Source: an uncultured virus (IMG/VR IMGVR_UViG_3300021387_001295)
Taxonomy: Duplodnaviria > Heunggongvirae > Uroviricota > Caudoviricetes
Length of the DNA: 20,000 nt
Virus record (IMG/VR): IMGVR_UViG_3300021387_001295
Strand: one strand, 5' to 3'
How positions within the stretch are numbered: the stretch's first letter is position 1; each line of letters begins with the position of its first letter. This document shows positions 6,646-7,126 of the stretch, in pieces. A model generated the notes under the pieces. It did no database searches. It was not told the DNA's origin and saw nothing but the letters and a program-made list of their open reading frames with translations. The position numbers and the translations under genes are program-made.

Positions 6646-7111
6646 CTATTTCTTTTTTCTTTTATTATTTTCATGAGAATATTCATTAATATATTGTTGC
6701 TTACGAACACCTTTAGCTGCTGATTTTATAGCTTTGGCTGTAGCTAAAGTTCCAATAGCGAGAGTTGATCCTATTATAGCTTTTTTAACTTTAGATTCCA
6801 ATTTAGGATCGGATATACCAGTTACTTTTATAAGATTTCCATCTTTTTTAAAAGCTCTACCAGTAGAAATAAAATCATAACCAATTTTTCCTAATATACC
6901 AGCTTTTACTGCTGTACCAGCAATATTTTTAGCTGTTCTGGTTTTTACTGCTCGTTTTGTATTACCGTTATATCTGATGGTATCGGTATCTAATTTTCCA
7001 CGAACTTTAGAACGTAATATTTCATTTTTCTTTTGATAACGTCTAACTCCGCCATTTCATACCAAGTATACCATGGTGGTAAAGCTCATCAGTTTTTTGA
7101 TAAGTCCACAT
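6646..7111 (-). CDS. HHG-motif basic protein (154 aa after +1 shift at CGG 7049-7051); absent from ORF track
   Basis: SD plus MWTYQKTDELYHHGILGMKW, then TGG C GGA GTT AGA CGT TAT CAA (W-G-V-R-R-Y-Q). The shifted frame stays open to TAG at 6646-6648 and fills the gap to the portal gene. The paralog at 9644-10048 reads WGIRRYQ with no extra base. Confidence 0.85.
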
Positions 7112-7126
7112 AACTATACTCCTTTC
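7052..7126. repeat. 75-bp direct repeat identical to 9989-10063 (SD + first 20 codons of HHG genes); diverged third copy at ~7808-7881
   Basis: Direct base-by-base comparison. Confidence 0.92.

Follow-up and report, generated by a model that had tools for sequence, protein, structure and literature searches.

A putative programmed +1 frameshift at a rare CGG codon in a split DUF7211 gene of an uncultured tailed phage

The bacterial gene prfB, which encodes RF2, is regulated through its own +1 frameshift site, CUU_UGA_C, in which a stop codon, the slippery codon CUU and an upstream stimulator resembling a Shine-Dalgarno (SD) sequence are combined. Rare arginine codons also provoke frameshifts in Escherichia coli (AGG_AGG and AGA_AGA, with errors at CGG), and programmed shifts are found in phages, -1 in the tail assembly chaperones (lambda G/GT) and +1 in the capsid and tail genes of Listeria phage PSA. 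To our knowledge, natural and selected +1 sites in bacteria and phages are few, and nearly all use a slippery P-site codon. We have analysed a 20,000-nucleotide stretch of DNA from an uncultured tailed phage (IMG/VR record IMGVR_UViG_3300021387_001295; hereafter the window), which carries three members of the DUF7211 family. Two are intact (paralogs A and B), and the third (paralog C) is split by a single extra C between an invariant Trp codon and an invariant Gly codon. Judging from its sequence, paralog C is probably a working gene, whose product would be a 154-residue DUF7211 protein made by programmed +1 ribosomal frameshifting at UGG_CGG_N, a site of the non-slippery, hungry-codon type.

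The proposed site shares with that of prfB a +1 shift early in the gene on bacterial ribosomes, a poorly decoded A-site codon and a short zero-frame product, although the stop codon and the slippery CUU of prfB are absent at UGG_CGG and no SD-like stimulator was seen there. The effects of rare arginine codons in E. coli are similar in that hungry codons give +1 shifts at a level set by mRNA load and tRNA supply, but these are over-expression artefacts rather than selected natural sites. The lambda and PSA shifts likewise occur in phage genes of the morphogenesis module and give two products from one start, but they take place on slippery sequences close to the 3' end and extend the C-terminus, whereas here the shift would fall at codons 20-21 and the zero-frame product is a 22-residue peptide.

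Two eukaryotic systems also invite comparison. The yeast +1 sites are GCG_AGU_U in Ty3 and CUU_AGG_C in Ty1 (PMC5009743), and the part of that account dealing with them describes a slow zero-frame A-site codon (a rare Arg codon in Ty1) that overlaps the +1 codon of an abundant tRNA (GGC Gly in Ty1), as at the phage site. Ty3, moreover, dispenses with P-site re-pairing, as a shift from UGG to GGC requires. Both, however, are Gag-Pol junctions of eukaryotic retrotransposons; Ty1 uses tRNA-Leu slippage, and Ty3 needs a 14-nt 3' stimulator, of which none was detected at the phage site. In the mitochondria of glass sponges (Hexactinellida) an inserted pyrimidine before GGA, usually T and in rare cases C, gives an extremely rare UGG or CGG codon (PMC5009743; PMC2267718), and the shift is read as a Ty3-like pause with out-of-frame binding of Gly-tRNA (Rosengarten et al. 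2008, PMC2267718; Atkins et al. 2016, PMC5009743). As far as the passages of these papers on the sponge sites extend, the likeness includes the inserted pyrimidine directly 5' of GGA, the extremely rare zero-frame codon, the conserved +1 Gly, the absence of a slippery P-site codon, and the retention of the extra base in cDNA (here, in contigs from RNA libraries). The sponge sites differ in that they lie in organelle genes for essential respiratory proteins, read with a reduced tRNA set, whereas the phage site belongs to a phage gene family translated by bacterial ribosomes, is patchy among paralogs and orthologs, and always follows UGG.

Searches of open-access PMC and bioRxiv found no paper on DUF7211, no text in which 'UGG CGG' occurs together with 'frameshift', and no report of this site, and as far as such searches reach the UGG_CGG_N frameshift is new for phages and for the DUF7211 family. 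If it is real, a non-slippery shift of the hungry-codon type, documented to date in yeast Ty3 and animal mitochondria, would have a conserved counterpart on bacterial ribosomes, and one that comes with intact paralogs in the same genome as an internal control and with 17 natural variants for comparison.

Anatomy of the split gene

The genes of the window all lie on the minus strand, and paralog C (7111..6646) is situated between paralog B and the portal gene. It has a good ribosome-binding site, AGGAAAGGAG (7119..7128), which ends 7 nt before the ATG at 7111 and lies within or beside a 75-nt block (7052..7126). This block of SD, ATG and codons 1-20 (which encode MWTYQKTDELYHHGILGMKW) is shared with paralog A and ends at the Trp codon. 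A sequence-only reading of the window had pointed out that 7052-7126 is identical to 9989-10063, and this is so at 75 of 75 bases, including 15 bases before the ATG, with a mismatch on either flank; a repeat search of the window reports the same paralog A/C block as 98% identity over 80 nt. The junctions that follow were also read correctly there in every detail. Paralog A continues as TGG GGT ATA AGG CGT TAT CAA (WGIRRYQ) and paralog B as TGG GGC ATT AGA, and these two intact genes serve as an in-genome control for an in-frame junction. Paralog C has TGG C GGA GTT AGA CGT TAT CAA, with the single extra C at position 7051. The proposed shift site (7049..7054) thus consists of the Trp codon (7054-7052) and a zero-frame CGG (7051-7049) that overlaps the +1 Gly codon GGA (7050-7048).

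Past the Trp codon the zero frame of paralog C reads CGG AGT TAG, and the open reading frame (ORF) that begins at ATG 7111 is therefore only 22 codons long (7043..7111, MWTYQKTDELYHHGILGMKWRS, with the stop TAG at 7045-7043). The +1 frame is open for 134 codons (6646..7050, GVRRYQKKNEIL...NNKRKKK, with the stop TAG at 6648-6646), and the earlier observation that it is free of stops for about 134 codons up to the portal SD is borne out, in that 7050..6649 gives 134 residues, NIAGTAVK among them. Its stop codon directly precedes the portal SD, GAAAGGAGG, and the portal gene starts (ATG, 6629) 17 nt after this stop. The two frames overlap by only four codons, between a +1-frame TGA in GGT-ATG-AAA and the zero-frame TAG. 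The arrangement is that of two overlapping ORFs in which the downstream one is in the +1 frame and has no start of its own. No ATG, GTG or TTG occurs in the +1 frame before a TTG at 6801, 83 codons in, and for this reason the ORF listing of the window gives just a 51-amino-acid ORF in this stretch. An open +1 frame of this length exceeds chance expectation: for 91 distinct intact DUF7211 genes from 80 related loci, the +1 reading past the Trp codon stays open for a median of 20 codons and a maximum of 94, and none of the 91 reaches 100.

DUF7211 (Pfam PF23847) is a hidden Markov model of a 25-position N-terminal motif with a gathering cut-off of 27 bits. When the C is skipped, the 154-residue product of paralog C (P0003) matches it with 36.2 bits (E 3.8e-9; residues 8-26, profile positions 6-24), which is above the scores of the intact paralogs A and B (30.9 and 31.1 bits) and upholds the claim that a third paralog is hidden here. 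Reading through the C thus extends the DUF7211 match across the junction; by comparison, the zero-frame pieces of two genes of the same kind in a complete related genome (G003, below) score just 28.6 and 25.5 bits over profile positions 6-18. All of the columns that are invariant among 34 homologs (H12, G14, G17, M18, W20, G21 and R23) are present in paralog C once the C is skipped, and the Gly after the Trp is found in 34 of 34 aligned intact homologs and at all 91 intact sites.

Recurrence of the extra C and selection on the +1 frame

The extra C is not a private lesion of this genome. An 11.6-kb IMG/VR record (G001) that is 100% identical to the window is not independent of it, but UGG-C-GGN is found in at least 17 distinct genes from independent viral contigs, metagenomes and metagenome-assembled genomes (MAGs), which fall into about ten unrelated downstream sequence groups; the same C recurs in independent assemblies from runs worth at least 14 studies. 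When IMG/VR was scanned for G-x-x-G-M-K-W with CGG as the next codon, 35 matches were obtained, 11 of them in a DUF7211 context. Eight of these are of the frameshift type, with a zero frame that ends 1-16 codons past the site and a +1 frame of 134-178 codons, and the other three read CGG in frame as Arg. Frameshift-type genes also account for three of four matches in GTDB genomes (L200, L202 and L203, each from a MAG of 28-31% GC that carries the label uncultured Bacilli or Bacillales) and for nine of ten in metagenomes, five of them new. A scan for the variant G-M-R-W adds at least one match in a DUF7211 context among 114 stretches examined (L313), again of the frameshift type. When an extra A or T was sought in place of the C, there were 81 matches, three of them in a DUF7211 context, all in frame and none of the frameshift type.

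The zero frame ends 1-16 codons after the site in all 17 carriers found, and the +1 frames are 134-235 codons long except in three, which run off their contigs after 36, 67 and 126 codons. No stop interrupts the +1 frame of any of the 17 as far as their sequence extends, and the sequence-only reading, which had named stop codons in relatives that carry the extra C as a test of continued selection, thus holds across the 16 further genes, three of them truncated as described. The +1 frame opens with G-[VHI]-R-[RK] in 16 of the 17, with L203 (G-Y-N-D) as the exception.

We also took 80 related loci chosen by portal similarity alone. These contain 94 distinct DUF7211 motif sites, of which 91 are intact and three have TGG-C-GGN with a long +1 frame; no other kind of frame break was seen in DUF7211 genes among the 94 sites. 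The three are the window's twin and genes in loci with portals 89% (L005) and 81% (L007) identical to that of the window. In another metagenome the same gene (L003) begins with a 5' block that departs from that of the window by seven silent and two replacement changes in 60 nt, yet is followed by the same TGG C GGA GTT AGA, which indicates that 5' blocks are exchanged between paralogs. The C can also sit on different family members, since L097 (on the contig of L005) carries it and is the ortholog of the window's intact paralog B. In G003, the complete 59.6-kb contig to which L005 belongs, two of the three DUF7211 copies are of the C type. The second of these (L107/L255) is at about 44.7 kb, some 33 kb from the terminase-portal region, and the arrangement is therefore not tied to one slot.

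The +1 frames of the carriers are under purifying selection. The ratio of non-synonymous to synonymous substitution (dN/dS, omega; method of Nei and Gojobori) was calculated for the downstream frames of orthologs that carry the C, and is 0.168 for L085/L087 (26 synonymous versus 20 non-synonymous differences; p 1e-7 against neutrality), 0.105 for L200/L208 (dS 0.94, p 9e-21), 0.226 for L208/L202 (dS 1.56) and 0.406 for L200/L202, whereas the other two frames of the same alignments give 0.9 to 1.8. This agrees with the earlier suggestion, made from the window alone, of continued selection downstream of the apparent frameshift. Synonymous divergence up to saturation together with low omega indicates that the carriers have diverged while keeping both the C and a constrained +1 frame. 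Comparison of L097, with the C, to the window's intact paralog B gives an omega of 0.155 over 148 codons. Three further carrier pairs with about 20% protein identity give 0.76-1.01, although their alignments are unreliable and these values uninformative. The marks of a pseudogene, such as relaxed selection and further stops or indels downstream, are not seen in the carriers, with one contig (X5, below) as the exception.

A divergent carrier is L203, in which the N-terminus reads ELYHKGTKGMKW and the shift site is nevertheless the same. Its +1 frame encodes two CW_7 cell-wall-binding repeats (PF08230, E 5.6e-29), and the gene occupies the same TerL-portal slot in a phage with a large terminase subunit (TerL) 87% and a portal 67% identical to those of the window. 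This gene (2550-3002, minus strand of its locus) has the only recognisable domain on any family member, which is a hint that DUF7211 cargo can act at the cell wall.

Proposed mechanism and alternatives

CGG is the rarest sense codon of the window, with two occurrences among 5777 codons in ORFs, as compared to 166 for AGA, 203 for GGT and 118 for GGA. The overlapping +1 Gly codon in the 17 genes is GGA in 11, GGT in five and GGG in one. A slow A-site codon that overlaps a common +1 codon is thus present at UGG_CGG, with CGG being rare rather than unassigned. No tRNA genes were found in the window or in the complete 59.6-kb G003, and an Rfam scan of the window returned no family. Elsewhere in the window CGG occurs in frame twice, and there the +1 frame extends for no more than 49 and 17 codons; the former case (codon 58 of 16486-16707, minus strand) lies in the classically slippery sequence CUU_CGG_U, but its +1 frame has no evident meaning.

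The sequences show the anatomy of the gene, a site conserved in 17 genes, +1 frames under purifying selection and a very rare CGG, with neither a phage tRNA nor a 3' structure found; that the shift is ribosomal, the codon at which it occurs (giving W-G or W-R), its efficiency and its purpose are inferred. Translation would begin at ATG 7111 and proceed through 20 codons to the invariant Trp codon UGG. The next zero-frame codon, the CGG created by the extra C before the invariant Gly, would then leave the A site stalled in wait for a scarce reader, during which a common Gly-tRNA could pair with the overlapping GGA one base downstream. The product would read ...GMKW-GVRRYQ..., in keeping with the family consensus W-G-x-R. 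Because tRNA-Trp would be unable to re-pair on GGC, the shift is expected to involve out-of-frame A-site binding, as in Ty3 and the glass sponges, rather than P-site slippage as in prfB and Ty1. No further element seems to be needed. The candidate hosts can read CGG, and the shift must therefore compete with normal decoding; ribosomes that decode CGG would stop two codons later and release the 22-residue peptide. The purpose is probably to provide a low, or host-tRNA-dependent, level of the full-length protein, and if efficiency does depend on the tRNA that reads CGG, dosage of this phage protein would be tied to the tRNA pool of the host.

Several observations weigh against this interpretation. 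The P-site tRNA-Trp (anticodon CCA) would keep one Watson-Crick pair on GGC, which falls short of the re-pairing at sites of the prfB and Ty1 type. For the 60 nt downstream, the mean predicted folding energy of -5.7 kcal/mol is no better than the -6.7 kcal/mol of intact paralogs (n=15 and 23; p 0.32), and no SD-like sequence was seen by eye within 15 nt upstream of the site, although stimulatory elements are not obligatory for +1 sites. The MAG that holds L200 has a tRNA-Arg(CCG), and that holding L202, while lacking CCG, has a tRNA-Arg(UCG) that could read CGG; both MAGs are incomplete, and the phage contigs are possibly mis-binned. Orthologs differ in state, paralog B being intact and L097 having the C, which shows that the C has been gained, lost or moved. 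In an independent DNA contig, X5 (depth 7.6), one more base is missing, from the A5 run at 7025-7029 (T5 on the window strand), 22-26 nt after the C; this deletion would close the +1 frame after about 14 codons and is either a real variant or a homopolymer error. Finally, contigs from two RNA libraries cross the site, X12 (6718-7191) and X4 (6700-7081), and have the C present without gaps, but such contigs cannot prove transcription. Within the limits of contig data they do argue against correction of the frame at the RNA level. In a 3%-divergent DNA contig (X6) the frame is kept.

The differing ortholog states are also what would be predicted if the extra C were an off-switch, silencing the copy that bears it and being moved on and off the paralogs by gene conversion within their near-identical 5' blocks, with no ribosomal shift at all. 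Copies would then switch state frequently enough for selection to act on them. Exchange between paralogs is evidently frequent, as the sharing and swapping of blocks shows: the 75-nt block is identical in paralogs A and C, it differs in L003, and in the X5 and X6 contigs it is present on paralog B too. The C itself separates two orthologs, the intact paralog B and L097. Descent from one ancestral C, passed around by conversion, would account for a lesion that is identical everywhere, and the additional deletion in X5 could be decay of a silent copy. This model nevertheless strains against the divergence of the carriers, since L200, L208 and L202 are separated by dS of 0.9-1.6 at omega of 0.10-0.41 and all have the C, so that silencing would have to be repeated, recent and independent in each. 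It also has to accommodate the lack of any +1 stop in the 17 carriers, the absence of any otherwise broken DUF7211 gene among 94 sites, two of three copies being in the C state in the complete genome G003, and the same site in the divergent L203 (ELYHKGTKGMKW) with its CW_7 cargo; and it leaves to chance that the inserted base creates the rarest codon in front of a common Gly codon. We regard silencing, the main rival to a frameshift, as unlikely because of the long-diverged and constrained carriers, the absence of other lesions and the rarest-codon coincidence.

A different possibility accepts the ribosomal shift but places it one codon later, with CGG decoded as Arg and the shift made with tRNA-Arg in the P site, to give ...GMKW-R-VRRYQ.... 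The open-frame overlap, from the +1 TGA in GGT ATG AAA to the TAG at 7045-7043, permits such a product. After a move from CGG to GGA, a tRNA-Arg(UCG) could still pair at two of three positions. Some family members have W-R in frame (L084, L103, L111 and L201), and the zero frame of L200 continues past CGG with the stop UAA, which resembles the context in prfB. However, the codons that follow CGG in the carriers (AGU, UCA, AAU, UAU, UUA, GCA and UAA) are not consistently slow, the Gly lost from such a product is the one that is invariant after Trp in the 34 aligned intact homologs and at the 91 intact sites, and no reason is given for the rare CGG itself. A later shift therefore seems to us distinctly improbable.

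It has also been considered that the locus makes two separate products, a functional 22-residue peptide and a downstream protein translated by reinitiation or from a non-canonical start. The zero-frame stop is indeed near enough for reinitiation in all 17 genes, at 1-16 codons past the site, but there is no ATG, GTG or TTG near the junction in the +1 frame (the first being TTG 6801, 83 codons in). The +1 frame opens with the conserved G-[VHI]-R-[RK], the last part of the DUF7211 motif, which 16 of 17 carriers retain; such a position is understandable only for a segment fused to the upstream part, and separate translation is very hard to maintain. The view that paralog C is a dead gene or a sequence error, with the C introduced by a recent inactivating insertion or by the assembly and the open frame a leftover, would account for the premature stop after 22 codons and for gene callers missing the whole gene, but we give it almost no credence in light of the same C in independent assemblies (at least 14 studies' worth of runs) and in 17 divergent genes, omega far below 1, and a recognisable domain (CW_7, L203) in one of the +1 frames.

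Other explanations were dropped. CGG is not likely to be unassigned in the host, as the candidate MAGs have tRNA-Arg(CCG) or tRNA-Arg(UCG); an alternative genetic code does not apply, with TGA ending three of 27 ORFs and the long ORFs all intact under table 11; and codon reassignment could not in any case repair a change of frame. Transcriptional slippage is unlikely, there being no homopolymer at the site and the C being kept in the RNA-library contigs.

Returning to the ribosomal shift at UGG_CGG, we put forward a broader and more doubtful idea, that UGG_CGG_N is a minimal portable +1 cassette, needing neither slippery codon nor stimulator, which sits at the 3' edge of the conserved 5' block and is moved with it by gene conversion. 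It might place any DUF7211 cargo under the CGG-reading capacity of the host and act as a sensor of the tRNA pool or as a timer late in infection, and the 22-residue peptide, which most ribosomes would release, may compete for the partner of the motif.

The DUF7211 family and other features of the window

In gene order the locus begins with a connector-like gene (10404..10051) upstream of paralog A (9644..10048, 134 amino acids), itself upstream of TerL (7881..9626; PF20441, E 3.3e-34; phrog_9, E 2.6e-112). Paralog B (7130..7867, 245 amino acids) lies between TerL and paralog C, and the portal gene (5328..6629; PF04860, E 1.7e-16; phrog_12, E 1.9e-49) is followed by a putative protease-capsid fusion (5308..3410), all on the minus strand. 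The three window copies of DUF7211 thus flank TerL and precede the portal gene. Actinophage homologs are found 3-8 kb from the left genome end and are all annotated as hypothetical, and a tblastn search of GenBank phages gave 125 records, all below 60% identity and hypothetical where listed. By blastn, the 6400-7900 segment of the window has no match among GenBank phages. NCBIfam, a PDB sequence search and the ESM Atlas offered no functional lead beyond clusters of viral hypothetical proteins.

The DUF7211 proteins consist of an N-terminal motif of about 25 residues joined to highly varied C-terminal parts that are basic, helical and often hydrophobic. An AlphaFold model of paralog A built with 33 homologs is a weak prediction (mean predicted local distance difference test score, pLDDT, of 67 and predicted template modelling score of 0.38), in which the motif has a pLDDT of about 50 and the rest is helical. 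Low confidence over the motif is as expected if it is a short binding motif. We infer, tentatively, that the motif could serve as a shared tag by which variable cargo is recruited to a head or packaging component.

Automated gene calling breaks up or overlooks genes of the C type, as seen with the 51-amino-acid ORF here and with a database call that reads through TGA. A recurrent gene of the terminase-portal slot in widespread rumen and gut phages is mis-annotated as a consequence. Two database proteins cover the downstream ORF of paralog C, P0005 (96% identical) and P0006 (54%); the DNA behind P0006 was not found in the viral contigs searched. The gene call for P0005 takes as its start a +1-frame ATG within the H-H-G codons, treats TGA as Trp (MVYLVWNGGVRRYQ...), and looks like a table-4 gene-calling artefact that arose from a split gene.

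Elsewhere in the window, a region of about 1.3 kb (11550-12880) has no ORF of 60 or more amino acids on either strand, and no Rfam family or tRNA was found in it. It lies between genes for proteins of 84 (13136..12882) and 116 (11521..11171) amino acids, and could be a genome end, a packaging site or an origin. The gene at 13139-16147 (minus strand) encodes a 1002-amino-acid protein with helix-turn-helix matches at both ends (HTH_23 near residue 100; HTH_3 and sigma-70 region 4 near residue 980), and its N-terminus, LMHYGKGHLDGG...YPWGSG, faintly recalls the H-[HY]-G-x-x-G...W-G motif of DUF7211. The 632-amino-acid protein encoded at 3410-5308 (minus strand), downstream of the portal gene, carries a prohead protease domain (Peptidase_S78) at its N-terminus and matches phrog_3270 over its full length, and looks like a fusion of a protease with part of a capsid or scaffold. 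A 301-amino-acid protein (17683-18588, minus strand) has UDP-glucose/GDP-mannose dehydrogenase domains (PF00984, E 1.3e-12), and is an unusual metabolic gene for a phage of this size.

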